Shown here: positions 3,137 through 52,951 of the stretch, piece by piece
Numbering within the stretch: the stretch's first letter is position 1
How the letters are laid out: each line of letters starts with the position of its first letter
Position numbers and translations under genes: made by a program
Sequence record: MN895435.1
DNA from: Escherichia phage teqhal
Length of the DNA stretch: 64,000 nucleotides
Direction: 5' to 3' (one strand)
The notes under the pieces: model-generated
Told to the model about the DNA's origin: nothing
Seen by the model: only the letters and a program-made list of their open reading frames with translations
Database searches by the model: none

Positions 3137-3153
3137 AGGCCTTCGGGCCTTTA
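3137..3153 (+). terminator. UUCG-loop hairpin after the lipoprotein ORF (weak terminator or RNA stability element)
   Basis: aggcc-ttcg-ggcct stem-loop followed by TT. Confidence 0.35.
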
Positions 3154-3204
3154 GCTTTATGATTACCGGAGTATAATATTCCCGAAACCAAACGAGGATA
3201 AGTG

Positions 3205-5022
3205 ATGATTAAGAATGAAATTAAAATTCTGAGCGATATTGAACATATCAAAAAGCGTAGTGGCATGTACATTGGCTCTTCTGCTAATGAAATGCATGAG
3301 CGCTTTCTGTTTGGTAAATGGGAAAGTGTTCAGTATGTACCTGGTCTTGTTAAGCTTATTGATGAAATTATCGATAACTCAGTCGATGAAGGTATTCGTA
3401 CTAAGTTTAAATTCGCGAATAAAATTAATGTTACCATTAAAAATAATCAGGTAACAGTTGAAGATAACGGTCGCGGTATTCCACAAGCGATGGTTAAAAC
3501 ACCTACCGGTGAAGAAATTCCTGGTCCAGTTGCTGCTTGGACTATTCCAAAAGCGGGTGGTAACTTCGGTGATGATAAAGAACGCGTCACTGGCGGTATG
3601 AATGGTGTTGGTTCTAGTTTAACTAACATTTTTTCTGTGATGTTTGTCGGAGAAACTGGCGACGGTCAAAATAATATTGTAGTTCGTTGTTCAAACGGCA
3701 TGGAAAATAAATCATGGGAAGATATTCCTGGAAAATGGAAAGGAACCCGTGTTACTTTCATTCCTGATTTTATGTCATTTGAAACTAATGAGCTGTCCCA
3801 AGTTTATCTTGACATTACACTAGATCGTCTCCAGACACTTGCTGTTGTTTATCCTGATATTCAATTTACCTTTAATGGTAAAAAGGTTCAGGGCAATTTT
3901 AAGAAATATGCACGCCAATATGATGAGCATGCTATTGTTCAAGAACAAGAAAATTGTTCTATTGCGGTTGGTCGTTCACCGGATGGTTTTCGTCAATTAA
4001 CTTATGTGAATAACATCCACACTAAGAATGGTGGCCATCACATTGACTGTGTTATGGATGATATTTGTGAAGACCTTATTCCACAAATCAAACGTAAGTT
4101 CAAAATTGATGTAACTAAAGCACGTGTCAAAGAATGTTTGACTATCGTTATGTTTGTTCGTGATATGAAAAACATGCGATTTGATTCTCAAACTAAAGAG
4201 CGTTTGACTTCTCCATTTGGCGAAATTCGTAGTCATATTCAGCTTGATGCTAAAAAGATTTCACGCGCTATTTTAAACAATGAAGCGATTTTGATGCCAA
4301 TTATTGAAGCTGCGTTGGCTCGTAAATTGGCGGCAGAAAAAGCAGCAGAAACTAAAGCAGCTAAAAAGGCTTCTAAAGCTAAGGTTCATAAACATATCAA
4401 AGCGAATCTTTGTGGTAAAGATGCTGATACTACTCTTTTCTTGACTGAGGGTGATTCGGCTATCGGATATCTTATTGATGTTCGTGATAAAGAACTTCAT
4501 GGTGGTTATCCATTGCGTGGTAAAGTTCTCAACAGTTGGGGTATGTCATATGCTGATATGCTTAAAAACAAAGAACTGTTTGATATTTGCGCAATCACTG
4601 GATTAGTTCTCGGTGAAAAAGCTGAAAACTTGAATTATCATAATATTGCTATTATGACTGATGCTGACCATGATGGTCTAGGAAGCATTTATCCTTCTCT
4701 GCTCGGGTTTTTTAGTAATTGGCCAGAATTGTTTGAGCAAGGACGAATTCGCTTTGTCAAAACTCCTGTAATCATCGCTCAGGTCGGTAAAAAACAAGAA
4801 TGGTTTTATACAGTCGCTGAATATGAGAGTGCTAAAGATGCTCTACCTAAACATAGCATCCGTTATATTAAGGGACTTGGCTCTTTGGAAAAATCTGAAT
4901 ATCGTGAGATGATTCAAAATCCGGTATATGATGTTGTTAAACTTCCTGAGAACTGGAAAGAGCTTTTTGAAATGCTCATGGGAGATAATGCTGACCTTCG
5001 TAAAGAATGGATGAGCCAGTAG
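3205..5022 (+). CDS. 39: DNA topoisomerase II large (ATPase) subunit, single-chain 39+60 type
   Basis: 605 aa from ATG at 3205 (track start 3202 is GTG); N-terminus MIKNEIKILSDIEHIKKRSGMYIGS is GyrB/gp39-like; continuous ORF with no bypass element. Confidence 0.9.
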   Translation: MIKNEIKILSDIEHIKKRSGMYIGSSANEMHERFLFGKWESVQYVPGLVKLIDEIIDNSVDEGIRTKFKFANKINVTIKNNQVTVEDNGRGIPQAMVKTPTGEEIPGPVAAWTIPKAGGNFGDDKERVTGGMNGVGSSLTNIFSVMFVGETGDGQNNIVVRCSNGMENKSWEDIPGKWKGTRVTFIPDFMSFETNELSQVYLDITLDRLQTLAVVYPDIQFTFNGKKVQGNFKKYARQYDEHAIVQEQENCSIAVGRSPDGFRQLTYVNNIHTKNGGHHIDCVMDDICEDLIPQIKRKFKIDVTKARVKECLTIVMFVRDMKNMRFDSQTKERLTSPFGEIRSHIQLDAKKISRAILNNEAILMPIIEAALARKLAAEKAAETKAAKKASKAKVHKHIKANLCGKDADTTLFLTEGDSAIGYLIDVRDKELHGGYPLRGKVLNSWGMSYADMLKNKELFDICAITGLVLGEKAENLNYHNIAIMTDADHDGLGSIYPSLLGFFSNWPELFEQGRIRFVKTPVIIAQVGKKQEWFYTVAEYESAKDALPKHSIRYIKGLGSLEKSEYREMIQNPVYDVVKLPENWKELFEMLMGDNADLRKEWMSQ

Positions 5023-16442: not shown

Positions 16443-17228
16443 TTATACTCTTGAACCATATATTGTACCAACCTTAGTCCAAGTTGGAGCATTACCAGTA
16501 ACAGCTTTACCGGCCGCGCCGCCGTTATATTCTGATCCTTGCCCACGAATATTACATTTACCACCTGCGGCACCAGCATCACCGCCATTCCCGCCATTAT
16601 AGATACCATTGACAGACCCTTTACCAGGTGCAGAAATAGTACCAGCAGTAGCGCCCTGTTCCATATTAGCAGACCCGCCAGCAGCACCAAATGGACGACC
16701 GCCGCCACCGCCAAAAGTCAATTTCATTTGTGAAAAAGGAGAATAATATCCGCCTCCACCGCCGCCACCGCCTCCTGCGATAACACCATTGTTGTTAATA
16801 CGCAATCTAGTTCCAATTCCATTATTTATTGCAGTTCCTCCTGCTCCACCGGCAGAGTTATTTCCGCCATTCCCGCCACGGCCCCAAACATGCACTCCTG
16901 AATTGATATTAAGTGTCACGTATGCATTAGTTAATGAGCTAGGAAAATCTAAGCATGGAACACCAGTAGATTGAGAAACAATATTTCCTGTAATAGTAAT
17001 AACAACAGGAGTACTGCCTTGGGCTTTTATCCAGTTTATTAATGTATCTTTATTATAAGAATTACTAGCACCAATGCTATAATATACTTCTTTAGATTGT
17101 CCGGCCATTGAGCTCATCCAACCGGGAACTGAAACACGGACTGCTCTCATTGCAGCATCCATCCAACGTTGTCCAGTTTCATTCACGGCAGATTCACCAA
17201 TCCAGCCAGGAACACCTACAATTGCCAT
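16443..17228 (-). CDS. 38: gp38 receptor-recognising tail-fibre adhesin, T2 type
   Basis: 261 aa; C-terminal half has several glycine-rich runs (GGGGGGGGGYY, FGGGGGRPFGAAGG, NGGNGGDAGAAGG) separated by variable segments; downstream of gene 37. Confidence 0.8.
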   Translation of the reverse strand: MAIVGVPGWIGESAVNETGQRWMDAAMRAVRVSVPGWMSSMAGQSKEVYYSIGASNSYNKDTLINWIKAQGSTPVVITITGNIVSQSTGVPCLDFPSSLTNAYVTLNINSGVHVWGRGGNGGNNSAGGAGGTAINNGIGTRLRINNNGVIAGGGGGGGGGYYSPFSQMKLTFGGGGGRPFGAAGGSANMEQGATAGTISAPGKGSVNGIYNGGNGGDAGAAGGKCNIRGQGSEYNGGAAGKAVTGNAPTWTKVGTIYGSRV

Positions 17229-17258: not shown

Positions 17259-20200
17259 TTACATAAGTTTAGATTCAAGTTCTTTTACACGAGAAGAAAG
17301 CGTTTTCACAGCTTCAACCAGAAGAGCAATCTGGGCTTGAGAAGAAACAGTGAGTATTTTATTACCCTTGCTGTCTTCTGTTTCACGGACGGCTTCTGGT
17401 AAAACGTCTTGTAACGTTTGAGCTACAATACCCGCTTCAGTTTCAATTGCCTCTCCACCGATGTATTCAGCTTTATCATAAATGACACCATTGAGTTTTT
17501 CAACTTTATCAAGTGCATTTTCGATAGGTTTGAAATTAGATTTTAAGCGAATATCAGAACGAATATAAACGTTTGGAGCATTTATATTTTTATATGAGTA
17601 CAAATCACCGTTTTGGAAACGGAATACTTGTACGCTGTTCGCATATATGTCTAATAATCCATCGCCATTTTGCTTAATACCAGTATCGCTATCACCAAAT
17701 GCTATACTATTTCCACCAAGTGCGTTATTGATATTAATACCAAATGAATTCATTTGGTTAACACCAGCTACAGTAGCATTATTTACTACAAAGCGGTTAG
17801 CTCCACCTGGAGCTTTTTCAAAGTAAGCAATATAGTTAGTTTCATCGGCAATTTCAATACGGTTACCACGAGAAGCATCGCCAGCATGAAATATTCTCAT
17901 ATTTCTTGGGTTAGCACCAGACTTATCAAAGTTAATAGAACCATTATCTTTGACATTTATGCTATTATAGAATAAAGCAGCACTGCGAACAGCTATGCCG
18001 TTATTCATTAATACTTCACCGGTTGTTAAGTTAATTGCGAAAGGACGCTTACTATTCCAATCACCGTTAACAGTTGCTTCGCCATCGGTGGCATTTTTAT
18101 CTGTAAACAGAATATAAAAACTACTGCCATCATTTCGTAGCATTGTAGCAACAGAACCAGTTTTATCGCTGTTGCTTCTAATACGAATACCAGTTTGGTT
18201 ATTAATAGCTATTTCAGAATCGGCTTCATAACGCTTAACTTTGCCGCGATCAACCAAGTTATTAAGAACATTAGCAACTTGCCCATCAACTGCTGTATCT
18301 GGAAGAGCATCCACAGGTGATTGGGTAGATGAGTTAATACCAATAACGCTAACAGTAGCATTTTCGGTACATGACCATTCACAAGTTAATTGATTGCAAT
18401 ATGTTCCGGCATAAACATAAATGTCATATGTATCTCCAGAGACGTTATTAACTGCAATATTTTTAAATGCAGCTGCAATTGTTCTTGTGTATAATACAGC
18501 ATTTAAGTCAGCAGGTCTTTCATTACTAGTACGTAAAACAATTTCAGCAATATTGCATTGTGTGAATAATCCACTATTAAATCCAGAACCACCGGCTATT
18601 TTAAAGAAGACCGTAGAAGTGGATTGTGGCATTGTTACTGTTGCAAACTTATACCATCCAGCAGTTGCTCCATAAGTAATAAATCCAGAATTAACTTTAC
18701 GATTTAGCGTGGTGTTTAAGTTAGCAAAGTTTCCTGAACCGCTAGTAATATTACCATCAGTTCCTAGTTGGGCATTTCCGACTTTAAGAGGTTTACTGAT
18801 TGACACGAAATTATCGCTTATAACAAGACCGTGTCCATAAGATTGACTATAAAGCGATAAATCACTTCCAGCGCCACCAAGACCAACATACCACGATCTA
18901 GTTCCAGCTTTAGAACCCTGCAAATAATTAGCAGAAGAAGATGAAGGAGAATCTAGAGTAAGCGCTGCATTACGTTCATTAATAGTTACTGGACATATCA
19001 TTTTAATAGTTTTAAGACTATTACTTACTTGTAATAATCCTGTACCAGATCCAGAATCTCCTAAATGAACATCATGCGACATTTTAACTGTGCCGGTGTT
19101 CAGTTCTATTATCAATGGTCTAAGATTACTTATACCGCCAGATTCTCCAGCATCTTTAGGAGTCGGGATAATATAAAGATTTCTTTCTGAGCGACGGAAA
19201 ATAGCACCATATTCGGCATTCCAAATTCTTAATGCATCAGCAGTTCCGCCGATTTTAACTTGTCCAGTAATAGAAGAACCACCTTGGACAAACAAACCAT
19301 TAGACATGGTAACATTACCGACTAAAGTGCTTAATCCATTAACTTTAAAACTTCCGTCAGTAATAATACTTCCTCTAGCATTAACAGCTCCAGCAAACTG
19401 GGTTACAACAGGACCAGTAGTTTCTGAGCCGCTTGGGGCTACACGCTGGGAATAAAAATAATAACCTTGTCCGTCAGCTACTTCAAAAACTGTTTCACGA
19501 TTACGATCGCCAGATGCGTTAAATGAATTACCCCACGCTTTAACAGTTACATAGCTTTTATTCTGACCAGCACGAGTACCGCCTTCCCACAAAATTTGCT
19601 TAGTGCCATCAATTGTAGTAGTTGGAGCGAATGTTAGCCCAGCAGTAGAATTATTAGCTGCTAAATATATGCCGTTATATATTGAAAGCTGCTTAACAGA
19701 TGTAATACCGCCATCAGCATAAAACATTACATTATTAGAGCCAGTTACCAATTTCAAAATACCTGGGTTAACTTCCATGCCTTCTTGAGTATTAATATTA
19801 GTTTTTCCTTTACCACGGAAATAGTGGTTCATTTTACCGCCAGAGTTATATCCAATGTGGGTTTGACCATCTCCAGCAGAGTTTTCATCAGCCTGTGTTT
19901 GAACCGATAAAAAAGCAGCGTTCGTTCCAGGCATAATCCATGTTCCGCCTTGGTCTTCTGAACGTCCAAATAATGCTTTACGAGTACTACGGAAACTGTC
20001 AGGAGTAATAGACGCGATAGAAAGACCATTAGCAACTAAATCATATACACCAGATCTTTTATATGATACACCAGTTGCGGCATCTCCAATGACTATATAG
20101 CATTCACCCATTGCTCCAGTGGAGCCGTAATTATTAATGTTTTCATCTGTTGTAATTGTACCAATTGCGAGTGAGCGTCGCAACACTAAAGACCCATCAT

Positions 20201-21041
20201 TGCGAAGGCCCATTTGTTTATTAACGGCTGTATTACCGGTCCACCAAGACAGTTCATCACTTTTTCCGGTTTGTGCAGAAGCTAATTCATGATAAATCGT
20301 ACCACCAGATTTTGCACGGAATTTACGAAGGTAATTAATTCCGTTTGTTTCACCAGTTCCAGGATAAACATATTGAACTAATGACTGCGAATCGTATTGT
20401 CCAAACGCTTTCGTATCAAATGAAATATTTTTAGTTACAACAGATGGACCAATCAAAGAACCTGTTCTTGTTTCAATATTACTCTGAGCGACTAAATACC
20501 CACCAGATACTAATAAATTACCAGAATCAACTTGAAAATTACCTGAGCGCGCAAATGTCCAATATTTAGATTGACCAGTTTCATCAATATAATGAATCTT
20601 CAACGAACCTTCAGAAACTAAAGTACCTAATGAAAAAGTTCCATCTTTAAAGCGCTGTTTAATTATAGGATTATATTCAGATGTGGAAGTAGCTGAGCTT
20701 AAATCTACAAAAATTGGAGCCTTTGCAGTGTGTTGACCGGACCAAGCCCCACTTCCAGTAGTACGATAATTAAACTCAATATATCCACCACTTGCTATAA
20801 TCTGCGGGCCAATTAAATTAAATTTTCCAGTCTGTGTATAATCACCAGTTTGAGTGATATTACCACTGATATTACCGCCAGCGGTAATGCTTAAGTCAAT
20901 GATATTTCCTGAATCGTCTTTAGTAAAAATTGTTCTATCTTTTAAGTTTATAGCCAATTCACCTTCGGCTAATACTGAAGCAGCAGGACGTTGACCTGCA
21001 GTTTTGCTTCTTTTAAATTGTATTTGTTTTAAAGTAGCCAT
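17259..21041 (-). CDS. 37: long tail fibre distal subunit gp37 with C-terminal chaperone-like domain
   Basis: 1260 aa; C-terminal about 120 aa (SDIRLKSNFKPIENALDKVEKLNGVIYD...) resembles the self-cleaving intramolecular chaperone domain; synteny 34-35-36-37-38-t. Confidence 0.9.
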   Translation of the reverse strand: MATLKQIQFKRSKTAGQRPAASVLAEGELAINLKDRTIFTKDDSGNIIDLSITAGGNISGNITQTGDYTQTGKFNLIGPQIIASGGYIEFNYRTTGSGAWSGQHTAKAPIFVDLSSATSTSEYNPIIKQRFKDGTFSLGTLVSEGSLKIHYIDETGQSKYWTFARSGNFQVDSGNLLVSGGYLVAQSNIETRTGSLIGPSVVTKNISFDTKAFGQYDSQSLVQYVYPGTGETNGINYLRKFRAKSGGTIYHELASAQTGKSDELSWWTGNTAVNKQMGLRNDGSLVLRRSLAIGTITTDENINNYGSTGAMGECYIVIGDAATGVSYKRSGVYDLVANGLSIASITPDSFRSTRKALFGRSEDQGGTWIMPGTNAAFLSVQTQADENSAGDGQTHIGYNSGGKMNHYFRGKGKTNINTQEGMEVNPGILKLVTGSNNVMFYADGGITSVKQLSIYNGIYLAANNSTAGLTFAPTTTIDGTKQILWEGGTRAGQNKSYVTVKAWGNSFNASGDRNRETVFEVADGQGYYFYSQRVAPSGSETTGPVVTQFAGAVNARGSIITDGSFKVNGLSTLVGNVTMSNGLFVQGGSSITGQVKIGGTADALRIWNAEYGAIFRRSERNLYIIPTPKDAGESGGISNLRPLIIELNTGTVKMSHDVHLGDSGSGTGLLQVSNSLKTIKMICPVTINERNAALTLDSPSSSSANYLQGSKAGTRSWYVGLGGAGSDLSLYSQSYGHGLVISDNFVSISKPLKVGNAQLGTDGNITSGSGNFANLNTTLNRKVNSGFITYGATAGWYKFATVTMPQSTSTVFFKIAGGSGFNSGLFTQCNIAEIVLRTSNERPADLNAVLYTRTIAAAFKNIAVNNVSGDTYDIYVYAGTYCNQLTCEWSCTENATVSVIGINSSTQSPVDALPDTAVDGQVANVLNNLVDRGKVKRYEADSEIAINNQTGIRIRSNSDKTGSVATMLRNDGSSFYILFTDKNATDGEATVNGDWNSKRPFAINLTTGEVLMNNGIAVRSAALFYNSINVKDNGSINFDKSGANPRNMRIFHAGDASRGNRIEIADETNYIAYFEKAPGGANRFVVNNATVAGVNQMNSFGININNALGGNSIAFGDSDTGIKQNGDGLLDIYANSVQVFRFQNGDLYSYKNINAPNVYIRSDIRLKSNFKPIENALDKVEKLNGVIYDKAEYIGGEAIETEAGIVAQTLQDVLPEAVRETEDSKGNKILTVSSQAQIALLVEAVKTLSSRVKELESKLM

Positions 21042-28071: not shown

Positions 28072-28387
28072 TATTCGCCCGGTCGATGAGACCGGTCTTT
28101 CAGAAAAAGAACTTTCAATCAAGAAAGAAAAGGATGAAATAGCAAAGCTTCTTGATCGTCAAGAAAATGGATTTATTATTGAAAAAATGGTAGAAGAGTT
28201 TGGAATGAGTTATCTTGAAGCTACGACAGCATTCTTAGAAGAAAACTCTATTCCTGAAACTCAATTTGCTAAATTTATTCCTTCGGGTATAATTGAAAAA
28301 ATTCAGTCAGAAGCTATTGACGAAAATCTTTTACGTCCTTCTGTTGTTCGTTGTGAAAAAACTAATACATTAGATTTTCTGCTATGA
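28049..28387 (+). CDS. 33: late transcription co-activator gp33
   Basis: 112 aa from ATG at 28049, the T4 gp33 length; overlaps dsbA 3' end. Confidence 0.75.
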   Translation: MTQFSLNDIRPVDETGLSEKELSIKKEKDEIAKLLDRQENGFIIEKMVEEFGMSYLEATTAFLEENSIPETQFAKFIPSGIIEKIQSEAIDENLLRPSVVRCEKTNTLDFLL

Positions 28388-29037
28388 TTAAACTCCGCAT
28401 GCCTGCTGGTGGTGAAAGATACATTGATGGTAAATCAGTTTATAAATTATACTTAATGATAAAACAACATATGAATGGAAAGTATGATGTTATTAAGTAT
28501 AATTGGTGCATGCGGGTGTCTGATGCCGCTTATCAAAAACGAAGAGATAAGTATTTTTTCCAAAAGCTATCAGAAAAGTATAAATTAAAAGAATTGACTT
28601 TAATTTTTATTAGCAATCTTGTAGCTAACCAAGATGCTTGGATTGGTGATATCTCTGACGCTGATGCATTAGTATTTTATCGTGAATATATCGGTCGCTT
28701 AAAGCAAGTTAAATTTAAATTTGAAGAAGATATTAGGAATATCTATTATTTTAGTAAAAAAGTTGAAGTTTCTGCTTTTAAAGAAATCTTTGAGTATAAT
28801 CCAAAAGTTCAATCAAGTTATATTTTTAAACTACTTCAATCGAATATAATTTCGTTTGAGACGTTTATCTTGCTTGATTCATTTTTAAATATAATTGATA
28901 AACATGATGAACAGACTGATAATTTAGTCTGGAATAATTATTCTATAAAGTTAAAGGCTTATAGAAAAATTTTAAATATTGATTCACAGAAAGCTAAAAG
29001 TGTTTTTATTGAAACTGTGAAATCTTGCAAATATTAA
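28384..29037 (+). CDS. 59: helicase loader gp59
   Basis: 217 aa, the T4 gp59 length; directly upstream of gene 32. Confidence 0.8.
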   Translation: MIKLRMPAGGERYIDGKSVYKLYLMIKQHMNGKYDVIKYNWCMRVSDAAYQKRRDKYFFQKLSEKYKLKELTLIFISNLVANQDAWIGDISDADALVFYREYIGRLKQVKFKFEEDIRNIYYFSKKVEVSAFKEIFEYNPKVQSSYIFKLLQSNIISFETFILLDSFLNIIDKHDEQTDNLVWNNYSIKLKAYRKILNIDSQKAKSVFIETVKSCKY

Positions 29038-29062
29038 TTGCTTATTATAAATAGATTATAAT
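29036..29062 (+). promoter_or_regulatory. putative MotA-dependent middle promoter, overlapping a late-promoter motif, for gene 32
   Basis: MotA-box-like TTGCTTAT about 12 bp upstream of TATAAT; TATAAATA at 29046..29053. Confidence 0.45.
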
Positions 29063-29070
29063 TATCTCAC

Positions 29071-29136
29071 TGACCAGCTATGAGGTCATACATCGTCATA
29101 GCACCAACTGTTAATTAAATTAAAAAGGAAATAAAA
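29071..29136 (+). promoter_or_regulatory. gene 32 autoregulatory translational operator (pseudoknot plus A/U-rich region)
   Basis: tgacc-agctatga-ggtca-tacatcg-tcatagc gives two interleaved stems (tgacc/ggtca and gctatga/tcatagc), followed by A/U-rich sequence up to the gene 32 ATG. Confidence 0.75.
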
Positions 29137-30045
29137 ATGTTTAAACGTAAATCTACTGCTGAACTCGCTGCACAAATGGCTAAACTGGCTGGAAATAAAG
29201 GTGGTTTTTCTTCTGAAGATAAAGGCGAGTGGAAACTGAAACTCGATAATGCGGGTAACGGTCAAGCAGTAATTCGTTTTCTTCCGTCTAAAAATGATGA
29301 ACAAGCACCATTCGCAATTCTTGTAAATCACGGTTTCAAGAAAAATGGTAAATGGTATATTGAAAACTGTTCATCTACCCACGGTGATTACGATTCTTGC
29401 CCAGTATGTCAGTACATCAGTAAAAATGATTTGTACAACACTGACAATAAAGAGTACAGTCTTGTTAAACGTAAAACTTCTTATTGGGCTAATATTCTTG
29501 TTGTAAAAGACCCAGCTGCTCCAGAAAATGAAGGTAAAGTATTTAAATATCGTTTCGGTAAGAAAATCTGGGATAAAATCAACGCGATGATTGCGGTTGA
29601 TGTTGAAATGGGTGAAACTCCGGTTGATGTAACTTGTCCGTGGGAAGGTGCTAACTTTGTACTGAAAGTTAAACAGGTTTCTGGATTTAGTAATTACGAT
29701 GAATCTAAATTCCTGAATCAATCTGCGATTCCAAACATTGACGATGAATCTTTCCAGAAAGAACTGTTCGAACAAATGGTTGACCTTTCTGAAATGACTT
29801 CTAAAGATAAATTCAAATCGTTTGAAGAACTGAGCACTAAATTCGGTCAAGTTATGGGAACTGCTGTGATGGGCGGTGCTGCTGCAACTGCTGCTAAGAA
29901 AGCTGATAAAGTTGCTGATGATTTGGATGCATTCAATGTTGATGACTTCAATACAAAAACTGAAGATGATTTTATGAGCTCAAGCTCTGGCAGTTCATCT
30001 AGTGCTGATGACACGGACCTGGATGACCTTTTGAATGACCTTTAA
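29137..30045 (+). CDS. 32: single-stranded DNA-binding protein gp32
   Basis: 302 aa; zinc-binding Cys/His cluster ([15 protein letters not shown]); acidic Ser/Asp-rich C-terminal tail. Confidence 0.9.
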
Positions 30046-30067
30046 TAGATTATATTACTAATTAATT

Positions 30068-30092
30068 GGGGACCTCTAGGGTCCCTTTTTTT
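30068..30092 (+). terminator. rho-independent terminator after gene 32
   Basis: ggggacc-tcta-gggtccc hairpin followed by TTTTTTT. Confidence 0.7.
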
Positions 30093-30118
30093 ATTTCAAA
30101 AATTTTTTCACAAAATGG

Positions 30119-30147
30119 TTTACATCCTTGTCCTTCCATGGTACTAT
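30119..30147 (+). promoter_or_regulatory. early promoter
   Basis: -35 TTTACA, 17 bp spacer, TG-extended -10 TGGTACTAT, A/T-rich UP-like sequence. Confidence 0.55.
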
Positions 30148-30190
30148 ACAACTATCGGCAATACTGCTGATGATTAAAGAGGAAAATAAT

Positions 30191-30421
30191 ATGGCTAAAG
30201 TTGATATTGACATCGTTGATTTTGAATATATCGAAGAAATTATTCGTAATCGTTATCCTGAACTTAGTATCACAAGTATTCACGATGATCCCAATTATTG
30301 CAATTTTTCTATTGTCATTGAAGGTCCTCTTGAAGACCTCACCCGCTTTATGGCTAATGAATATTGTGATGGCATGGATTCTGAAGACGCAGAATTTTAC
30401 ATGGGACTGATTGAACAATAA
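30191..30421 (+). CDS. hypothetical acidic protein, 76 aa (frd.3-like position)
   Basis: AAGAGGAAAATAATATG RBS (track start 30128 lies inside the promoter). Confidence 0.45.
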
Positions 30422-30465
30422 TTATCAAGGGGCTATCAAGCCCCTATTAAAATGAGGAAACCGTA

Positions 30466-30846
30466 ATGTATACCGGTAAAAAGTATGAACTTGTTCCAAG
30501 ACTTATTGATACATTTATTAATTATAGCCCACGTTCTAATTCATCAATCGTTAAAGCTATTCGAGATAATGGCGGATGGTTTGAAGTTAAAGAAGTTTCC
30601 GTCGCTAATGGATATAAAGCAGTAAAACACATTGAATGCGCAAATGGAAAGCATTTTTACCTCAAAGATAGACTTTTAGAAATTTGCGAAGATGAATTTC
30701 ATTGTTTTCGTGAGTATAAAGAACCGACTTCTGAAGAAGATGAAGTCAAAGACAAGGTTTCTGGCGTAACAAAAATTCACTGCATTGTAGATGAAAACAA
30801 TGTAGATGAAATCATTGAACTTTTGCGAAAAACTTTTAAGGCCTAA
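30466..30846 (+). CDS. hypothetical protein, 126 aa
   Basis: GAGGAAACCGTAATG RBS. Confidence 0.5.
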   Translation: MYTGKKYELVPRLIDTFINYSPRSNSSIVKAIRDNGGWFEVKEVSVANGYKAVKHIECANGKHFYLKDRLLEICEDEFHCFREYKEPTSEEDEVKDKVSGVTKIHCIVDENNVDEIIELLRKTFKA

Positions 30847-30847
30847 T

Positions 30848-31069
30848 ATGACTAAAGATGATTTCCTGGATGCGGTAGAAAAAGCTAGTGAGAAATTTGA
30901 AGTGATGGGTGTACGGGTCCATAAAGACAGAAATTACGGGCTCGATATTCAAACGTATTCGTTATGGCTTGTGGGTGAACACAGTCTTGTAACCAGTTTA
31001 GTTATGGTGTCGATACCTATCCTCTATTGGTCAAGTTCAGAAGTATGGAAAAGGCTACTAAAGAAATGA
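30848..31069 (+). CDS. hypothetical protein, 73 aa
   Basis: ATG immediately after upstream stop; start uncertain. Confidence 0.4.
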   Translation: MTKDDFLDAVEKASEKFEVMGVRVHKDRNYGLDIQTYSLWLVGEHSLVTSLVMVSIPILYWSSSEVWKRLLKK

Positions 31070-31164
31070 TTAAGCTTGGTAAGTGGCTCGATAAAATTCA
31101 AAAATAATTGTTTACAACGGGCTATGGTAATGATACTATAGCCTTATCAACTAAGGAGAATAAA

Positions 31165-31407
31165 ATGAGATTACAACGTCAGAGCATCAAAGATTCGGAA
31201 GTTAGAGGTAAATGGTATTTTAATATCATCGGTAAAGATTCTGAACTTGTTGAAAAAGCTGAACACCTTTTACGTGGCATGGGATGGGAAGATGAATGTG
31301 ATGGGTGTCCGCTTTATGAAGACGGTGAAAGCGCAGGATTTTGGATTTACCATTCTGACGTCGAGCAGTTTAAAGCCGATTGGAAAATTGTGAAAAAGTC
31401 TGTTTAA
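31165..31407 (+). CDS. hypothetical protein, 80 aa
   Basis: AAGGAGAATAAAATG conserved leader; promoter-like GTTTACA...TGATACTAT upstream. Confidence 0.45.
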   Translation: MRLQRQSIKDSEVRGKWYFNIIGKDSELVEKAEHLLRGMGWEDECDGCPLYEDGESAGFWIYHSDVEQFKADWKIVKKSV

Positions 31408-31417
31408 GGAAAATAAT

Positions 31418-32244
<827 letters not shown>

Positions 32245-32263
32245 AATAACGCGTGGCGGAAAT

Positions 32264-32611
32264 ATGAATTTTAATTATTACCCTATTCTATTAGAAAAAG
32301 ATGAGAAACAGCCAAAGTGGCAGGGTCCTCAGTTTATTAAAGGCGTTTATCAATTAGTAGTTCCTAAAGACAAGATTTATAGTAGTTGTTTCACTGAATC
32401 CGCTTGCAGTATTTTCGGTAATAGTTCTCCGTATTGGAATTTTGACATAAAGCTGGATAGAAATATTGATATTTGGTTGAAAGCTATGGATATTGGTAAT
32501 ATCACGTTTGATGAGAATAATTATCATATTATTGGTCGTTTTTCCAAACGCGGTAAAGAATTATATTTCACACCTGAAATTGAGAGAAAATTTGATGCTA
32601 AACCGTATTGA
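32264..32611 (+). CDS. hypothetical protein, 115 aa, between frd and td
   Basis: ORF with weak RBS. Confidence 0.45.
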   Translation: MNFNYYPILLEKDEKQPKWQGPQFIKGVYQLVVPKDKIYSSCFTESACSIFGNSSPYWNFDIKLDRNIDIWLKAMDIGNITFDENNYHIIGRFSKRGKELYFTPEIERKFDAKPY

Positions 32612-32656
32612 TTATTTAGCTTCATAAAATGTATTATAATTTATATAAGGTACTAA

Positions 32657-33517
32657 ATGAAACAATACCAAGATTTAATTAAAGACATTTTTGAAAATGG
32701 CTATGAAACCGATGACCGAACGGGCACAGGAACAATTGCTCTGTTCGGTACTAAATTGCGTTGGGATTTAACCAAAGGTTTTCCTGCAGTAACAACTAAG
32801 AAGCTCGCCTGGAATGCATGCATTGCTGAGCTAATATGGTTTTTATCAGGAAGCACAAATGTTAATGATTTACGATTAATTCAACACGATTCGTTAATCC
32901 AAGGCAAAACAGTTTGGGATGAAAATTACGAAAATCAGGCAAAAGATTTAGGATACCATAGCGGTGAACTTGGTCCAATTTATGGAAAACAGTGGCGTGA
33001 TTTTGGCGGTGTAGACCAAATTATAGAAGTTGTTGATCGTATTAAAAAACTGCCAAATGATAGGCGTCAAATTGTTTCTGCGTGGAATCCAGCTGAACTT
33101 AAATATATGGCATTACCTCCTTGTCATATGTTCTATCAGTTTAATGTGCGTAATGGCTATTTAGATTTGCAGTGGTATCAACGTTCGGTAGATGTTTTCC
33201 TCGGTCTTCCATTTAATATTGCATCATATGCTACGTTAGTTCATATTGTAGCTAAGATGTGTAATCTTATTCCGGGAGATTTGATATTTTCTGGTGGTAA
33301 TACTCATATCTATATGAATCACGTAGAACAATGTAAAGAAATTTTGCGTCGTGAACCTATGGATTTATGCGAATTACAATTAAAATTTCCAGATGAATTT
33401 GATGAATGGGACACAGAATCGCAGGTATTTTGGTTGAGTCAATTTGCAAAGCCTCATAATTTTGTTCTTAACAACTATGTATCTCATCTGCCAATTAAAG
33501 GAAAAATGGCGGTATAA
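32657..33517 (+). CDS. td: thymidylate synthase, uninterrupted
   Basis: 286 aa continuous ORF; thymidylate synthase active-site region MALPPCHMFYQFNV. Confidence 0.9.
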   Translation: MKQYQDLIKDIFENGYETDDRTGTGTIALFGTKLRWDLTKGFPAVTTKKLAWNACIAELIWFLSGSTNVNDLRLIQHDSLIQGKTVWDENYENQAKDLGYHSGELGPIYGKQWRDFGGVDQIIEVVDRIKKLPNDRRQIVSAWNPAELKYMALPPCHMFYQFNVRNGYLDLQWYQRSVDVFLGLPFNIASYATLVHIVAKMCNLIPGDLIFSGGNTHIYMNHVEQCKEILRREPMDLCELQLKFPDEFDEWDTESQVFWLSQFAKPHNFVLNNYVSHLPIKGKMAV

Positions 33518-33540
33518 TTTTAATTTAATTGAGAGGATAT

Positions 33541-33804
33541 ATGATTTTACGATTTAAAGATACTTCTGGTGTCGTTCTTTTTACACTTCCTAATCCAAGC
33601 GAGTTAGAAGTTCCAGGACCAGAACAGCCTATTACCATTTATGGTAAAAAATACTATACTCATAAAATGACTCGTGAGTATTTTGACAATAAAATTTCCA
33701 CAGTTAAAACTTCTTCTGACTGTTACTACGATATTACTGTTTTAACGGAAAAACAATATGAAGAATTATTACCAACCGGGCCGTCTATGCCGGGTAGTGA
33801 ATAA
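33541..33804 (+). CDS. hypothetical protein, 87 aa
   Basis: GAGAGGATATATG RBS (track start 33529 is TTG). Confidence 0.45.
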
Positions 33805-34084
33805 ATACAAATCCGACTTTGATGTTAATATTCACCGCGGTACATTTTGGGGAAATTACGTCGGTAAAGATGCTGGCAGCCGGGAGGCTGCCATTGAATT
33901 ATTCAAAAAAGATTTTATACGTCGAATTAAATCCGGAGAAATAACTAAAGCACATTTAGAGCCTTTACGTGGAATGAGGCTAGGATGCACATGTAAACCA
34001 AAGCCGTGTCATGGTGATATAATAGCTCATATAGTTAACCGATTGTTTAAAGACGATTTTCAAGTTGAGGACTTATGCAATTAA
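33758..34084 (+). CDS. hypothetical protein, 108 aa
   Basis: ORF overlapping upstream gene by 47 nt; start uncertain. Confidence 0.4.
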
Positions 34085-36339
34085 TTAATGTTATCAAAAG
34101 TAGTGGTGTTTCTCAGAGCTTTGACCCACAAAAAATTATTAAAGTTTTATCTTGGGCAGCTGAAGGAACATCGGTAGATCCTTATGAATTATATGAAAAT
34201 ATTAAATCTTATCTCCGTGATGGAATGACAACTGATGATATTCAGACTATTGTCATTAAGGCCGCTGCGAATTCTATTTCGGTTGAAGAGCCTGATTATC
34301 AATATGTAGCTGCACGTTGTCTAATGTTCGCTCTTCGTAAGCATGTTTATGGGCAGTATGAACCACGTTCATTTATTGACCATATTTCTTACTGTGTAAA
34401 TGAAGGTAAATACGACCCTGAATTATTGTCAAAATATTCAGCAGAAGAAATTACATTTTTAGAATCAAAAATTAAGCACGAGCGGGATATGGAATTTACT
34501 TATTCCGGGGCGATGCAATTAAAAGAAAAATATCTAGTTAAAGATAAAACCACTGGTCAAATTTATGAAACTCCACAGTTTGCATTTATGACTATTGGAA
34601 TGGCATTGCATCAAGATGAACCTGTTGATAGATTAAAACACGTTATCCGTTTTTATGAAGCAGTATCTACTCGACAGATTTCATTGCCAACTCCTATTAT
34701 GGCTGGTTGCCGTACTCCGACTCGACAGTTTAGTTCATGTGTTGTTATTGAGGCAGGTGATTCATTAAAGTCTATCAATAAGGCTTCCGCTTCAATTGTT
34801 GAATATATCTCTAAACGCGCTGGAATTGGTATTAACGTTGGTATGATTCGTGCTGAAGGTTCTAAGATTGGCATGGGTGAAGTACGCCATACCGGTGTTA
34901 TTCCTTTTTGGAAACATTTTCAGACTGCTGTTAAATCATGCTCACAGGGTGGAATTCGTGGCGGCGCTGCTACTGCTTATTATCCTATTTGGCATTTGGA
35001 AGTTGAAAATCTTCTCGTTTTGAAAAATAACAAAGGTGTAGAAGAAAACCGCATTCGTCATATGGATTATGGTGTTCAACTGAATGATCTAATGATGGAA
35101 CGTTTTGGAAAGAACGATTACATTACTTTGTTCAGTCCACATGAAATGGGTGGAGAGCTTTATTATTCTTATTTTAAAGACCAAGACCGTTTCCGTGAAT
35201 TATACGAAGCAGCAGAAAAAGACCCTAATATTCGTAAAAAGCGCATTAAAGCCCGTGAACTATTTGAATTGCTCATGACTGAACGCTCAGGAACAGCAAG
35301 GATTTATGTGCAGTTCATTGATAATACGAATAACTATACTCCGTTTATTCGTGAAAAGGCACCTATTCGTCAGAGTAACTTGTGCTGTGAAATTGCTATT
35401 CCAACAAATGATGTGAATAGCCCTGATGCTGAAATTGGATTGTGCACGTTATCTGCATTTGTGTTGGATAACTTCGATTGGCAAGACCAAGATAAAATTA
35501 ATGAATTAGCAGAAGTTCAAGTTCGTGCTCTTGATAATCTTTTGGATTACCAAGGATATCCAGTTCCTGAAGCAGAAAAAGCTAAAAAGCGTCGAAACCT
35601 TGGTGTAGGTGTTACTAACTATGCAGCTTGGCTGGCAAGTAACTTTGCTTCTTATGAAGATGCTAACGATTTAACACATGAACTATTTGAGAGATTACAG
35701 TATGGACTCATTAAAGCATCCATTAAGCTCGCCAAAGAAAAAGGACCTTGTGAATATTATTCAGACACTCGTTGGTCTCGAGGCGAATTACCTATCGACT
35801 GGTACAATAAAAAGATTGACCAAATCGCAGCTCCAAAATACGTTTGTGACTGGTCGTCGCTGCGGGAAGACCTTAAGCTCTTTGGCATCCGTAATAGCAC
35901 ATTATCAGCACTTATGCCATGTGAGTCATCTTCCCAAGTTTCTAACAGTACAAACGGTATCGAGCCTCCACGTGGACCAGTCTCTGTTAAAGAATCAAAA
36001 GAGGGCTCCTTTAATCAAGTCGTGCCCAATATTGAGCATAACATAGACCTCTATGATTATACATGGAAATTAGCTAAGAAAGGTAATAAACCTTATCTTA
36101 CGCAGGTAGCTATTATGCTGAAATGGGTATGTCAATCAGCTTCAGCGAATACATATTATGACCCACAGATTTTTCCAAAAGGAAAGGTTCCAATGTCAAT
36201 AATGATTGATGACCTTTTGTATTTTTGGTATTTTGGCGGAAAAAATTTCTATTATCATAATACCCGTGATGGTTCTGGTACTGATGATTATGAAATAGAA
36301 ACTCCAAAAGCTGAAGATTGTTCATCCTGTAAATTATGA
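34075..36339 (+). CDS. nrdA: ribonucleoside-diphosphate reductase large subunit
   Basis: 754 aa, the T4 NrdA length; class I RNR large-subunit sequence. Confidence 0.9.
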   Translation: MQLINVIKSSGVSQSFDPQKIIKVLSWAAEGTSVDPYELYENIKSYLRDGMTTDDIQTIVIKAAANSISVEEPDYQYVAARCLMFALRKHVYGQYEPRSFIDHISYCVNEGKYDPELLSKYSAEEITFLESKIKHERDMEFTYSGAMQLKEKYLVKDKTTGQIYETPQFAFMTIGMALHQDEPVDRLKHVIRFYEAVSTRQISLPTPIMAGCRTPTRQFSSCVVIEAGDSLKSINKASASIVEYISKRAGIGINVGMIRAEGSKIGMGEVRHTGVIPFWKHFQTAVKSCSQGGIRGGAATAYYPIWHLEVENLLVLKNNKGVEENRIRHMDYGVQLNDLMMERFGKNDYITLFSPHEMGGELYYSYFKDQDRFRELYEAAEKDPNIRKKRIKARELFELLMTERSGTARIYVQFIDNTNNYTPFIREKAPIRQSNLCCEIAIPTNDVNSPDAEIGLCTLSAFVLDNFDWQDQDKINELAEVQVRALDNLLDYQGYPVPEAEKAKKRRNLGVGVTNYAAWLASNFASYEDANDLTHELFERLQYGLIKASIKLAKEKGPCEYYSDTRWSRGELPIDWYNKKIDQIAAPKYVCDWSSLREDLKLFGIRNSTLSALMPCESSSQVSNSTNGIEPPRGPVSVKESKEGSFNQVVPNIEHNIDLYDYTWKLAKKGNKPYLTQVAIMLKWVCQSASANTYYDPQIFPKGKVPMSIMIDDLLYFWYFGGKNFYYHNTRDGSGTDDYEIETPKAEDCSSCKL

Positions 36340-36390
36340 TATAATTTGACTCACGGACGAGTCACCAACTATTAACTAAGCGGAAAATTT

Positions 36391-37569
36391 ATGAGCACAG
36401 TTTTTAATACAAATCCAGTTGATGTTTTAAAAGAACCTATGTTTTTTGGTTCAGGTCTTGGTATTGCGCGTTATGATATTCAACGCCATAAAGTTTTTGA
36501 AGATTTAACCGAAAAGCAATTATCATTTTTCTGGCGTCCTGAAGAAGTAAACTTAATGATGGATGCTGCACAGTTTAATAAGATTCCTCAGTATCAGCAA
36601 AATATTTTTACTAATAATCTGAAGTATCAATCACTTTTGGATAGCATTCAGGGTCGTGCGCCGTCTGCTGTACTTATGTCATTAATTTCAGACCCAAGCC
36701 TTGATACATGGGTTGCTACGTGGACTTTTAGTGAAACTATTCACTCTCGTTCATATACACATATCATGCGAAATCTTTATACTGATCCATCGAAGGTATT
36801 TGATGAGATTGTATTAGATGAAGCTATTATGAAACGTGCTGAATCCATTGGACGTTATTATGATGATGTTCTGACTAAAACTCGTTATTGGGAAAACGCT
36901 AAAGCTGATATCGAATACCAAAAAGAAATTAATGCAGACGAAGATGTTATTGAAGATGCTATTGAGCATGAGACATATTGGAAGCGTGAGCTAATGAAAT
37001 CTCTTTACCTCTGTTTGCATGTAATCAACGCATTGGAAGCTATTCGTTTTTATGTATCTTTCGCATGTACCTTTAACTTCCATAAGAACATGGAAATTAT
37101 GGAAGGCAATGCAAAGATTATGAAGTTCATTGCACGTGATGAGCAGCTTCATCTTAAAGGTACACAATATATTATTCGTCAACTTCAATCTGGTACTGAT
37201 GGCGATGAATGGGTTAAAATTGCTCAAGAGTGTGAACAAGAAGCAGTTGATATTTTCATGGAAGTTAACCGCCAAGAAAAAGATTGGGCAGTTCATTTAT
37301 TTAAAGATGGCGATGTTCCTGGATTAAATACAAATAGCATGTGGAGCTTTATTGATTACTTAACTGTATCTCGTATGAAACAGTGTGGTCTTCCATGCCC
37401 AATTACCGATGCTCCGGTTAAACATCCATATCCTTGGATTCGTGAATATCTTAATTCTGATAATGTTCAATCCGCGCCACAAGAAGTAGAACTGTCATCT
37501 TATCTTGTTGCACAGATTGATAATGATGTTGATGATAAAGTTATGATGAGTTTTAAAAAATACTTTTAA
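36391..37569 (+). CDS. nrdB: ribonucleoside-diphosphate reductase small subunit, uninterrupted
   Basis: 392 aa continuous ORF; R2-like di-iron ligand spacing. Confidence 0.9.
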   Translation: MSTVFNTNPVDVLKEPMFFGSGLGIARYDIQRHKVFEDLTEKQLSFFWRPEEVNLMMDAAQFNKIPQYQQNIFTNNLKYQSLLDSIQGRAPSAVLMSLISDPSLDTWVATWTFSETIHSRSYTHIMRNLYTDPSKVFDEIVLDEAIMKRAESIGRYYDDVLTKTRYWENAKADIEYQKEINADEDVIEDAIEHETYWKRELMKSLYLCLHVINALEAIRFYVSFACTFNFHKNMEIMEGNAKIMKFIARDEQLHLKGTQYIIRQLQSGTDGDEWVKIAQECEQEAVDIFMEVNRQEKDWAVHLFKDGDVPGLNTNSMWSFIDYLTVSRMKQCGLPCPITDAPVKHPYPWIREYLNSDNVQSAPQEVELSSYLVAQIDNDVDDKVMMSFKKYF

Positions 37570-37574
37570 GGAGT

Positions 37575-37590
37575 GGGCCGCAAGGCCCAT
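37575..37590 (+). promoter_or_regulatory. hairpin between the Shine-Dalgarno sequence and start codon of denA
   Basis: AAGGAG at 37568..37573, then gggcc-gcaa-ggccc hairpin, then ATG at 37597; linear SD-ATG spacing about 24 nt. Confidence 0.45.
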
Positions 37591-37596
37591 TTTATT

Positions 37597-39184
<1,588 letters not shown>

Positions 39185-40613: not shown

Positions 40614-40616
40614 TAA

Positions 40617-41841
<1,225 letters not shown>

Positions 41842-42510: not shown

Positions 42511-42572
42511 TAGTTTACTTTACAGTAGAGTTGTGATATTATGGCTCTACCAAACAAATGAGGAAATTGAAA

Positions 42573-43100
42573 ATGAGCGAATGGTTTGAAGAAGATAAGG
42601 TTTATCGCTTTAAAGCTGGATATAAAGATATTTTTAATGAAACTTGCGGGGCTAATAAACGAATTGCTCAGTTTATTGGGGAAAATTCATTTAAAGTAAA
42701 AATTGATCCCGCGAAAAATGTTATTAGCATTAAACGTGAAATTGACGATTACTGGTATAAAGCTGTTGATGTAATGGGTGAATGCTATAAAGATAGCCCA
42801 TTATTTTCAATTACTTATATGTCAGAATATTATTTTTTCGAAGAAGTTCAAAAAGATGATTCTGTCAGTAAATTTGAAATTAAAACTGATAAAGAAATTA
42901 AATGGAAAGTAGTAGGTATTACTGGTTGTATGTTTTATATCTATGCTCAAACTGATACGAAGGAAGAAGCTAAAAAGAAAGCTCTAGAATATCTTGAAGA
43001 GTATGAAGAAGGCCCGGTAATGATTACTCAAGATGCTGAATTAGTTTCTGTCAAATTAGTTAAAAACGTTGAAAGTAAGGAGCTGGGATCAACATGCTAA
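42573..43100 (+). CDS. hypothetical protein, 175 aa
   Basis: GAGGAAATTGAAAATG RBS. Confidence 0.5.
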   Translation: MSEWFEEDKVYRFKAGYKDIFNETCGANKRIAQFIGENSFKVKIDPAKNVISIKREIDDYWYKAVDVMGECYKDSPLFSITYMSEYYFFEEVQKDDSVSKFEIKTDKEIKWKVVGITGCMFYIYAQTDTKEEAKKKALEYLEEYEEGPVMITQDAELVSVKLVKNVESKELGSTC

Positions 43101-50854: not shown

Positions 50855-52948
50855 ATGGAACTCATTACAGAATTATTTGACGAAGATACTACTCTTCCGA
50901 TTACAAACTTAAATCCAAAGAAGAAAATACCACAAATTTTTTCAGTTCACGTTGATGATGCAATTGAACAACCAGGCTTTCGTTTATGTACCTATACATC
51001 TGGAGGTGATACTAATCGCGATTTAAAGATGGGCGATAAAATGATGCATATTGTTCCTTTTACATTAACTGCTAAAGGTTCAATTGCTAAATTGAAAGGT
51101 CTTGGTCCAAGCCCAATTAATTATATCAATTCAGTTTTTACTGTTGCAATGCAAACAATGCGTCAGTATAAAATTGATGCCTGTATGCTCCGTATTCTTA
51201 AGTCTAAAACTGCTGGTCAAGCTCGACAAATTCAAGTTATTGCTGATAGACTTATCCGTAGTCGTTCAGGTGGAAGATACGTCCTTCTTAAGGAACTCTG
51301 GGATTATGATAAAAAGTATGCATATATTCTTATACATCGCAAAAATGTATCACTAGAAGACATTCCAGGAGTTCCGGAAATTAGTACCGAGCTCTTTACT
51401 AAGGTTGAATCGAAGGTCGGTGATGTTTATATCAATAAAGATACTGGAGCTCAAGTAACTAAAAATGAGGCAATTGCAGCATCTATTGCACAAGAAAATG
51501 ATAAACGTTCTGACCAAGCTGTAATCGTTAAAGTTAAAATTTCCCGTAGAGCAATTGCACAAAGTCAGTCATTGGAATCTTCTAGATTTGAAAGTGAATT
51601 ATTCCAGAAGTATGAATCTACCGCAGCTAATTTCAATAAACCTGCTACTGCTCCTTTAATTCCCGAAGCAGAAGAAATGAAGCTTGGAATTAATTCATTA
51701 GCTTCTAAAACTAAGGCAGCAAAAATTATTGCCGAAGGAACTGCGAATGAACTTCACTATGACTATAAATTCTTTTCAAAAAGTGAGGTTAATGAAGTTT
51801 CCGAAAAAATTAAAGATGTAATTCTTAATGCGATCAAAAATGAACCAACTACTTCAATAAAATGTTTAGAGAAATACGCAGCAGCTGTCAATCAATTCTT
51901 TGAAAAATATAAAGATAATTGGCTTGATAAACATAATAAAACTCGTAAAGGGCAGCCAGATGAAGTCTGGGAAGAAATAACTAAAAATTCCTGGAACGCA
52001 GCAAAAACTAAATTCCTCAAACGAATGATTTATAGTTTTTCTGGAATTGGTGCAGGCCCAATGATTGATATTACTATTGCCCGCGATGGTTCTAAATATA
52101 CTCCATCACAAAAGCGTGGCATTAGAGAATATTGCGGTTCAGGATATACTGACATCAATAATCTTCTTTTAGGTCGTTACAATCCAGAACGATATGATGT
52201 AATGAGTGAAAAAGAAATTGAATCTGCTATAAATAATTTAGATTCAGCTTTTGAAAATGGTGACCGTATACCAGAAGGCATTACAGTTTATCGTGCTCAA
52301 AGCATGACTGCTCCTATATACGAAGCACTAGTTAAAAATAAAGTGTTCTATTTCAGAAATTTTGTATCTACTTCTTTAACTCCTATCATTTTTGGACGTT
52401 TTGGAATTACACATGCTGGTATTGGTCTTTTAGAACCAGAAGCTCGTAACGAATTAACGGTTGATAAAAATGAAGAAGGAATAACTATTAATCCAAACGA
52501 AATAAGAGCGTATAAAGAAAATCCTGAATACGTTAAAGTTCAAATAGGATGGGCAATTGATGGAGCTCATAAAGTTAATGTTGTATATCCAGGAAGTCTC
52601 GGAATAGCAACAGAAGCTGAAGTTATTCTACCGCGCGGATTGATGGTTAAAGTTAATAAAATAACTGATGCTTCTAATAATGACGGAACCACGTCTAATA
52701 ATACAAAACTCATTCAAGCTGAAGTTATGACCACAGAAGAACTCACCGAATCGGTAATCTATGACGGAGACCATTTAATGGAAACCGGCGAAGTAGTTGC
52801 AATGACAGGTGATATTGAAATAGAAGACAGAGTTGACTTTGCATCATTTGTTTCATCAAATGTTAAACAGAAAGTAGAATCATCTCTTGGAATTATTGCG
52901 TCTTGCATAGATATTACAAACATGCCTTACAAGTTCGTTCAAGGATAA
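50855..52948 (+). CDS. Alt-family ADP-ribosyltransferase, paralog 1
   Basis: 697 aa; candidate R-S-E motifs (VYRAQ, FVSTSL, EAEVILPRG); N-terminal MELITELFDE leader; N- and C-termini near-identical to the downstream paralog. Confidence 0.8.
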   Translation: MELITELFDEDTTLPITNLNPKKKIPQIFSVHVDDAIEQPGFRLCTYTSGGDTNRDLKMGDKMMHIVPFTLTAKGSIAKLKGLGPSPINYINSVFTVAMQTMRQYKIDACMLRILKSKTAGQARQIQVIADRLIRSRSGGRYVLLKELWDYDKKYAYILIHRKNVSLEDIPGVPEISTELFTKVESKVGDVYINKDTGAQVTKNEAIAASIAQENDKRSDQAVIVKVKISRRAIAQSQSLESSRFESELFQKYESTAANFNKPATAPLIPEAEEMKLGINSLASKTKAAKIIAEGTANELHYDYKFFSKSEVNEVSEKIKDVILNAIKNEPTTSIKCLEKYAAAVNQFFEKYKDNWLDKHNKTRKGQPDEVWEEITKNSWNAAKTKFLKRMIYSFSGIGAGPMIDITIARDGSKYTPSQKRGIREYCGSGYTDINNLLLGRYNPERYDVMSEKEIESAINNLDSAFENGDRIPEGITVYRAQSMTAPIYEALVKNKVFYFRNFVSTSLTPIIFGRFGITHAGIGLLEPEARNELTVDKNEEGITINPNEIRAYKENPEYVKVQIGWAIDGAHKVNVVYPGSLGIATEAEVILPRGLMVKVNKITDASNNDGTTSNNTKLIQAEVMTTEELTESVIYDGDHLMETGEVVAMTGDIEIEDRVDFASFVSSNVKQKVESSLGIIASCIDITNMPYKFVQG

Positions 52949-52951
52949 ATC

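Follow-up and report, generated by a model that had tools for sequence, protein, structure and literature searches.

The stretch of Escherichia phage teqhal that we analyzed (64,000 nucleotides of record MN895435.1, which we call the window) comes from a Tequatrovirus that appears to carry T2-type unoccupied alleles at the five sites where phage T4 has introns or homing endonuclease genes. We put the probability of this reading, which includes that a 115-amino-acid (aa) open reading frame (ORF) between frd and td is an ordinary small phage gene and not an endonuclease, at roughly 90%. The T4 elements are absent from the window and left no remnants, while the two spacers and the MobE nick region are like those of T2. 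This configuration was already known: it is the common state of T2 and of most relatives of T4, and our result is correct but ordinary.

Five T4 insertion sites

We compared the whole window with the matching 73 kb of T4 (NC_000866) using blastn. The alignment is colinear, with the plus strand of the window corresponding to the minus strand of T4, the shared T4 backbone genes have 85-97% DNA identity, and the target genes (td, 32, nrdB, and 39; PMC2988022, Table 1) are the same. It is interrupted by five blocks that are present only in T4, and these coincide with annotated selfish elements of T4:

T4 143546-144564, the td intron with I-TevI: window 33205/33206
T4 138457-139058, the nrdB intron with a defective I-TevIII: window 37064-37067
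T4 139719-140420, mobE and nrdB.1: window 36335-36391
T4 147918-148542, segG: window 29038-29074
T4 2793-3911, mobA, 60.1, the 5' part of gene 60, and the 50-nt bypass: window 4622-4687

All five T4 elements correspond to clean gaps in the window. This is an absence seen by comparison, to which a test against chance does not apply. Neither the blastn alignment to T4 nor a phmmer search of six-frame ORFs found remnants or scars of the elements at the five sites. An earlier note on this DNA, made from the sequence alone, had claimed that these sites contain no endonucleases or introns and had proposed aligning the junctions to T4 as a check. Its claim is borne out by the junction alignment, by phmmer, by permissive Rfam searches, and by the reading frame of gene 39. 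(The gene 39 site, at 3202-5022, lies outside the interval from 29037 to 37569 that the earlier note gave.)

The sites in and near td and nrdB involve these features:

32657-33517, plus strand: td (thymidylate synthase), 286 aa, uninterrupted
34075-36339, plus strand: nrdA, 754 aa
36340-36390, plus strand: nrdA/nrdB spacer, 51 bp, the empty mobE/nrdB.1 site
36391-37569, plus strand: nrdB, 392 aa, uninterrupted

That td and nrdB are uninterrupted, at the lengths that the earlier note gave, is confirmed at the level of individual bases. Td is identical to the spliced T4 protein at 257 of 286 residues, and both the junction alignment and the blastn breakpoints place the empty intron site between 33205 and 33206, where it is read through in frame. 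The CNNNG cleavage motif of I-TevI is present as CAACG at 33179-33183, 22 nt from the insertion site, which is the same spacing as in T4. Similarly, alignment to the spliced NrdB of T4 and to the junction DNA places the empty intron site of nrdB at about 37066/37067, and it is read through in frame as well. NrdB has 392 aa in the window and 388 aa in T4, with about 364 identical residues, and the differences cluster in one variable patch. This patch (at about 36870-37000, or around aa 160-200) lies just upstream of the intron site and contains several substitutions and two indels. At the DNA level, identity to T4 is only 84.5% over the initial 674 bp of nrdB and about 96% downstream of them.

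Just upstream of nrdB, T4 has 700 bp with mobE and nrdB.1 where the window has 51 bp. MobE nicks the nrdB gene of T2 at nt 122-126 (PMC2790892). The equivalent positions in the nrdB of the window are 36512-36516, and the sequence there is like that of T2 and unlike that of T4. The nick positions themselves do not differ from T2, and over the 70 nt that we compared there are 3 differences from T2. The 51-bp spacer also contains a hairpin (TGACTC-N6-GAGTCA, -7.5 kcal/mol, z = -2.0).

At the junction of genes 59 and 32, T4 has a 633-bp segG and the window has none. Gene 32 is the target gene of T4 SegG (PMC2988022, Table 1). The features at this junction are:

28384-29037, plus strand: gene 59 (helicase loader), colinear with its counterpart in T4 and ending in the stop codon that opens the empty segG site
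29038-29136, plus strand: 59/32 spacer, 99 bp, the empty segG site
29137-30045, plus strand: gene 32 (single-stranded DNA-binding protein), as annotated in phage Bas41 and in T4

The sizes that the earlier note gave for the two gaps, 51 bp between nrdA and nrdB and 99 bp between 59 and 32, are exact: the first lies between the nrdA stop at 36339 and the nrdB start at 36391, the second between the end of gene 59 at 29037 and the start of gene 32 at 29137. The 59/32 spacer contains a motif, TATAAATA, that resembles a late promoter, along with the hairpin of the gene 32 leader (GCTATGA...TCATAGC) and an A/T-rich operator. The hairpin is present in the RNA fold, and the fold of the spacer as a whole is not significant (z = -1.05). 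These presumptive promoter and operator signals are assigned from their sequence plus the T4 literature.

At the remaining site, two T4 genes are joined in the window:

3202-5022, plus strand: gene 39, topoisomerase II large subunit, a fused 39+60, uninterrupted

According to tblastn, a single frame encodes the equivalent of aa 1-473 of T4 gp39 (98.5% identity) and aa 27-160 of T4 gp60 (95.5% identity). At the join, the sequence (...TDADHDGLGSIYP...) runs on without a break, and gene 39 therefore has no coding gap. MobA, 60.1, and the 50-nt translational bypass are all missing from the gene 39 of the window; the single fused frame agrees with the earlier note, which had reported no mobA beside gene 39. 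The protein contains the Pfam domains GyrB, Toprim, and TOPRIM_C. The listed ORF has 606 aa and begins with GTG, and the start is likely to be the ATG at 3205, which would give 605 aa as in T2 and Bas41.

We also searched directly for introns and endonucleases. At the gathering threshold, Rfam gave no hits in the whole window, but this is uninformative, as the loci of T4, Bas43, and G4507 that are known to contain introns gave no hits either. The gathering score of the group I intron model (RF00028) is 50 bits, and it misses the classic introns in T4 td (40.3 bits, E=9e-8) and T4 nrdB (35.7 bits, E=2e-6). Because the cutoff is above both of these scores, routine Rfam annotation of T4-like genomes will not report these introns. 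With permissive settings, for which these two T4 introns were the control, there was no match to Intron_gpI within 28500-38200 (E<=10) or in the whole window (E<=0.05).

For the proteins, we ran phmmer with the --max option on the six frames of the window, which have 902 stop-to-stop ORFs of 30 aa or more. The queries were I-TevI, I-TevIII, MobE, SegG, SegE, MobA, gp60.1, and nrdB.1 from T4 and the full-length I-TevIII from Bas43. The sole match was DenA (1.3e-95 against T4 DenA), and E was 0.39 or higher for everything else. In the six frames, SegG, SegE, and I-TevI gave nothing better than E=1.2, and the values for MobE, MobA, and I-TevIII (from T4 or full-length from Bas43) were at least 0.39. 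Also, Pfam found no HNH or GIY-YIG domain in the eight listed ORFs that are absent from T4. The one nuclease of this type is next to nrdB:

37573-38007, plus strand: denA (endonuclease II), Pfam GIY-YIG at 5.4e-6; the only GIY-YIG nuclease found, and non-homing

The earlier note had expected that a search for GIY-YIG and HNH motifs would turn up just denA, and so it did. Permissive Rfam and phmmer found neither a group I intron core nor an endonuclease ORF at the sites.

T2 and other relatives

In T2 (AP018813), the gene order agrees with that of the window, and all five sites have the same empty layout. Nothing interrupts its td (861 bp) or its nrdB (1179 bp), and its gene 39 is a single coding sequence of 1818 bp. 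The 59/32 spacer of T2 is identical to that of the window over all 99 bp, and its nrdA/nrdB spacer, which also has 51 bp, agrees at 47 of these positions. T2 has the 115 aa ORF as well (99.1% identity), and the window encodes a Gp38 adhesin of the T2 type. On the other hand, the overall DNA identity of T2 and the window is only about 95%, and the window has an extra 87 aa ORF (30806-31069). The earlier note had described the phage as T2-like. This fits the layout, the spacers, the nick region, and Gp38, but the empty state is not diagnostic of T2, and the nearest record for 29-38 kb is that of Bas41 (teqhad).

More broadly, the stretch from 29037 to 37569 is matched by 1018 phage records, and 487 of these cover at least 80% of the 8.5 kb. 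The best is Escherichia phage FriedrichZschokke (Bas41, MZ501067, Tequatrovirus teqhad), which is 99.7% identical and has the same set of ORFs as the window across this stretch. After Bas41, many Tequatrovirus genomes match at 94-98% identity. If we count a T4 element as occupied in a phage record that covers at least 80% of it, then the td intron is found in 197 records, segG in 142, the nrdB intron in 118 (some of them outside of Tequatrovirus), the mobA cassette in 41, and mobE with nrdB.1 in 20. Since each element is in 20-197 records, as compared to 487 records with the backbone, the empty state is the majority state and does not single out T2. As an aside, 38 Pectobacterium, 17 Klebsiella, and 16 Salmonella phage records contain DNA that resembles the T4 nrdB intron, which implies that related introns or endonuclease genes exist well outside of Tequatrovirus.

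A different history for these sites is conceivable, if rather unlikely: an ancestor may have had some of the elements, and their precise loss may have followed, for instance when co-infection allowed recombination with an empty allele. Occupancy is indeed a mosaic among phages whose backbones are 96-97% identical. Bas43 has segG and an nrdB intron that encodes an I-TevIII of 229 aa, while G4507 has the td intron with I-TevI. Furthermore, the window is itself a mosaic relative to the phages in the databases: the best match for 29-38 kb is Bas41 (99.7%), the best match for 1-25000 is Bas40 (FriedrichMiescher, 97.5%), and the type of gp38 differs, as Bas41 has a T4-type gp38 chaperone of 183 aa and the window instead has the adhesin of 261 aa. 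Allele replacement is therefore frequent in this group. Nevertheless, there are no scars or remnants at the sites, and empty is the state of most relatives. Also, the spacers match those of T2, and the 59/32 spacer appears to hold its own promoter and operator signals. We prefer the view that the window has T2-type unoccupied alleles.

Genes labelled as homing endonucleases

The earlier note had pointed to an ORF of 115 aa between frd and td and had described these two genes as adjacent in T4. The ORF is real, and the description of T4 was correct (frd and td overlap by 4 bp there). The features are:

31636-32244, plus strand: frd (dihydrofolate reductase), 92.9% DNA identity to T4 frd
32238-32246, plus strand: left copy of the 9-bp direct repeat TAAATGAAA, which spans the frd stop codon
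32264-32611, plus strand: 115 aa ORF, PHROG 1928 (an uncharacterised phage protein family)
32654-32662, plus strand: right copy of the 9-bp direct repeat, which spans the td start codon

The real start of frd is probably the ATG at 31663, which would give a T4-like N-terminus (MIKLVF). The match of the 115 aa ORF to the profile of PHROG 1928 is full-length (E=3.1e-36, with residues 4-111 aligned to positions 2-125 of 126).

According to tblastn, the 115 aa ORF is present in 581 phage records, of which about 362 are at least 90% identical (Tequatrovirus records, including T2, RB14, and many others) and 219 are below 60%. The more distant set includes phages of Klebsiella, Edwardsiella, Erwinia, Citrobacter, and Serratia. 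In other genera, homologues at the same junction are 30-44% identical to the 115 aa ORF. In the Klebsiella phages that we sampled, the homologue lies between frd and td, and in Jiaodavirus JD18 it overlaps both of its neighbours. The ORF also coexists with T4-type elements: G4507 has it together with the td intron, and Bas43 has it together with segG and an nrdB intron.

In T4 the 9-bp repeat is present just once at this junction, and this copy forms the frd/td overlap. With two copies flanking the ORF in the window and one kept in T4, a 416-bp deletion between the repeats in the T4 lineage is the simplest history, although the motif is a common one. The distribution of the ORF, as judged from sequence comparisons, also seems to fit vertical inheritance and a loss in T4 better than it fits mobility. 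It is T4 that is atypical at the frd/td junction, being without a small gene that most of its relatives have kept. We considered whether the repeat might be a target-site duplication, and we rejected this as the main explanation, given that the repeat occurs 10 times in the window as a generic motif of stop/start junctions and that synteny of the ORF extends to other genera. A further copy of the repeat, at 40614-40622, is found at the start of an ORF of 106 aa that is also absent from T4.

The Bas41 and Bas43 records, which are from the BASEL collection, label the 115 aa ORF as a "putative homing endonuclease." Were this true, the region would contain an endonuclease after all. We consider it very improbable that it is a homing endonuclease or a mobile cassette of some unrecognised type. 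The label aside, the arguments for such an element would be that the ORF is polymorphic for presence (it is absent from T4), that it has the 9-bp repeat on both sides, and that its G+C content is slightly low (0.316, as compared to 0.356 for the window). But a repeat that is so common at stop/start junctions says little, and the ORF has the same position in other genera, where the JD18 copy overlaps both neighbouring genes. Furthermore, the 115 aa ORF has no similarity to Pfam, to NCBIfam, to the sequences in PDB, or to the T4 endonucleases. An exhaustive profile search gave only 28 clusters and no hint of function: almost all of them are stand-alone proteins in the range of about 95-136 aa that match no nuclease domain. 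In every record from outside of BASEL that we saw, the ORF is called hypothetical. Also, we predicted the structure of the 115 aa protein from an alignment of six sequences, shallow because homologue searches returned only 3 and then 5 relatives (the model is only moderately confident, with a pLDDT of 77), and a search of BFVD for similar folds found only uncharacterised proteins of T4-like phages. Where does the label come from? The BASEL study used a comparative-genomics setup to identify introns and putative homing endonucleases (PMC8594841), and we infer that the label is based on position rather than on homology.

We give slim odds to the ORF being a selfish or mobile cassette or encoding a nuclease whose fold is not yet recognised. 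At the same odds, there is a milder version, in which the ORF encodes a conserved accessory factor of the frd-td operon (for dTMP synthesis) that was deleted in T4. We continue to view it as an ordinary small phage gene.

Two other ORFs have the same label in the Bas41 record, and neither is in T4:

40617-40937: 106 aa ORF, PHROG 2364
42558-43100: 180 aa ORF, PHROG 3710

PHROGs 1928, 2364, and 3710 are all families whose function is unknown, and the name "hypothetical protein" is given to the ORF at 32264-32611 in 581 phage records, to the one at 40617-40937 in 706, and to the one at 42558-43100 in 302. For all three, the endonuclease label looks positional. None of the three labelled ORFs matches a nuclease in Pfam or NCBIfam or has similarity to a T4 endonuclease. 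The 180 aa ORF and an ORF of 123 aa (2498-2869) have weak matches to FRD2/GoF-like families (phrog_622, phrog_2980/13003, and Pfam FRD2), which suggests that they belong to a paralogous family of small proteins that is scattered across the early regions.

The least plausible alternative by far is that introns or endonuclease genes are present and were missed, being highly diverged or located elsewhere in these genes: although Rfam at its gathering threshold misses even the introns of T4, so that a null result at that setting is weak evidence, the permissive search with its working control was negative, td, nrdB, nrdA, 32, 59, and 39 each run at full length in one frame, colinear with both T4 and T2, the spacers have just 51 and 99 bp, and at the five T4 sites there is no unassigned DNA that is long enough for an element.

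Some considerations do weigh against our reading. First, the td homing site differs from that of T4 at 6 of about 42 positions. Second, sites that were never invaded and sites that were emptied again by recombination cannot be told apart from a single genome. Third, the lack of a nuclease fold in the model of the 115 aa protein is suggestive rather than proof. Finally, what we say below about crosses takes for granted that the phage is susceptible to the enzymes of T4.

Genome context and crosses with T4

The order of the genes around the empty sites is rnh, dsbA, 33, 59, 32, frd.3, frd.2, the 87 aa ORF, frd.1, an 81 aa ORF, frd, the 115 aa ORF, td, nrdA.2, nrdA.1, nrdA, nrdB, denA, and rnlA. 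Five ORFs of the window, of 115, 87, 81, 106, and 180 aa, are missing from T4. The two that we have not yet described, the adhesin, and gp37 are:

30806-31069: 87 aa ORF, PHROG 4423, not in T4 and not in T2
31418-31663: 81 aa ORF, PHROG 3183, not in T4 but present in T2
16443-17228, minus strand: Gp38 adhesin of the T2 type, 261 aa, Pfam GP38 at 3.5e-72
17259-21041, minus strand: gp37, 1260 aa

Directly after gene 32, at 30068-30086, there is a strong hairpin that resembles an intrinsic terminator (a stem of 8 bp and then a run of T). This is the only convincing terminator from a scan for promoter and terminator consensus sequences that did no better than shuffled sequences (39 sites, with 36.1 expected). 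The alt region (51661-54990) is unlike that of T4. In the annotation of Bas41, it contains two full-length ADP-ribosyltransferase genes (Alt and Alt2), and the T4 counterpart has alt and the fragments alt.-1 and alt.-2.

Beyond correct annotation, our findings have little significance. That T4's introns and free-standing endonucleases are patchily distributed, that T2 has empty sites, and that both take part in marker exclusion has been in the literature for decades (PMC2988022, PMC2790892). As for annotation, the three "putative homing endonuclease" labels in the nearest GenBank records are not supported by sequence or, for the 115 aa ORF, by fold, and they should not be propagated. If the 115 aa ORF did turn out to encode an accessory factor for dTMP synthesis, then decades of work on T4 would have missed a normal component of the nucleotide-synthesis cluster of the T-even phages.

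When T4 co-infects with a relative, its intron-encoded and free-standing endonucleases cut or nick the relative's empty alleles, and when the damage is repaired from the T4 copy, the element is transferred and flanking sequence is co-converted, which accounts for the localised exclusion of T2 markers (PMC2988022, PMC2790892). The earlier note had linked the empty sites to marker exclusion, and for T2 this link is indeed published (PMC2988022, PMC2790892). By analogy with the published crosses of T4 and T2, we predict that the phage of the window would be a recipient, and not a donor, in crosses with T4. During co-infection, its genome would be cut or nicked at td by I-TevI, at gene 32 by SegG, at nrdB by MobE, and at gene 39 by MobA. 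Repair from the T4 copy would then give it the T4 elements at the cost of its own flanking markers, which would appear as localised marker exclusion.

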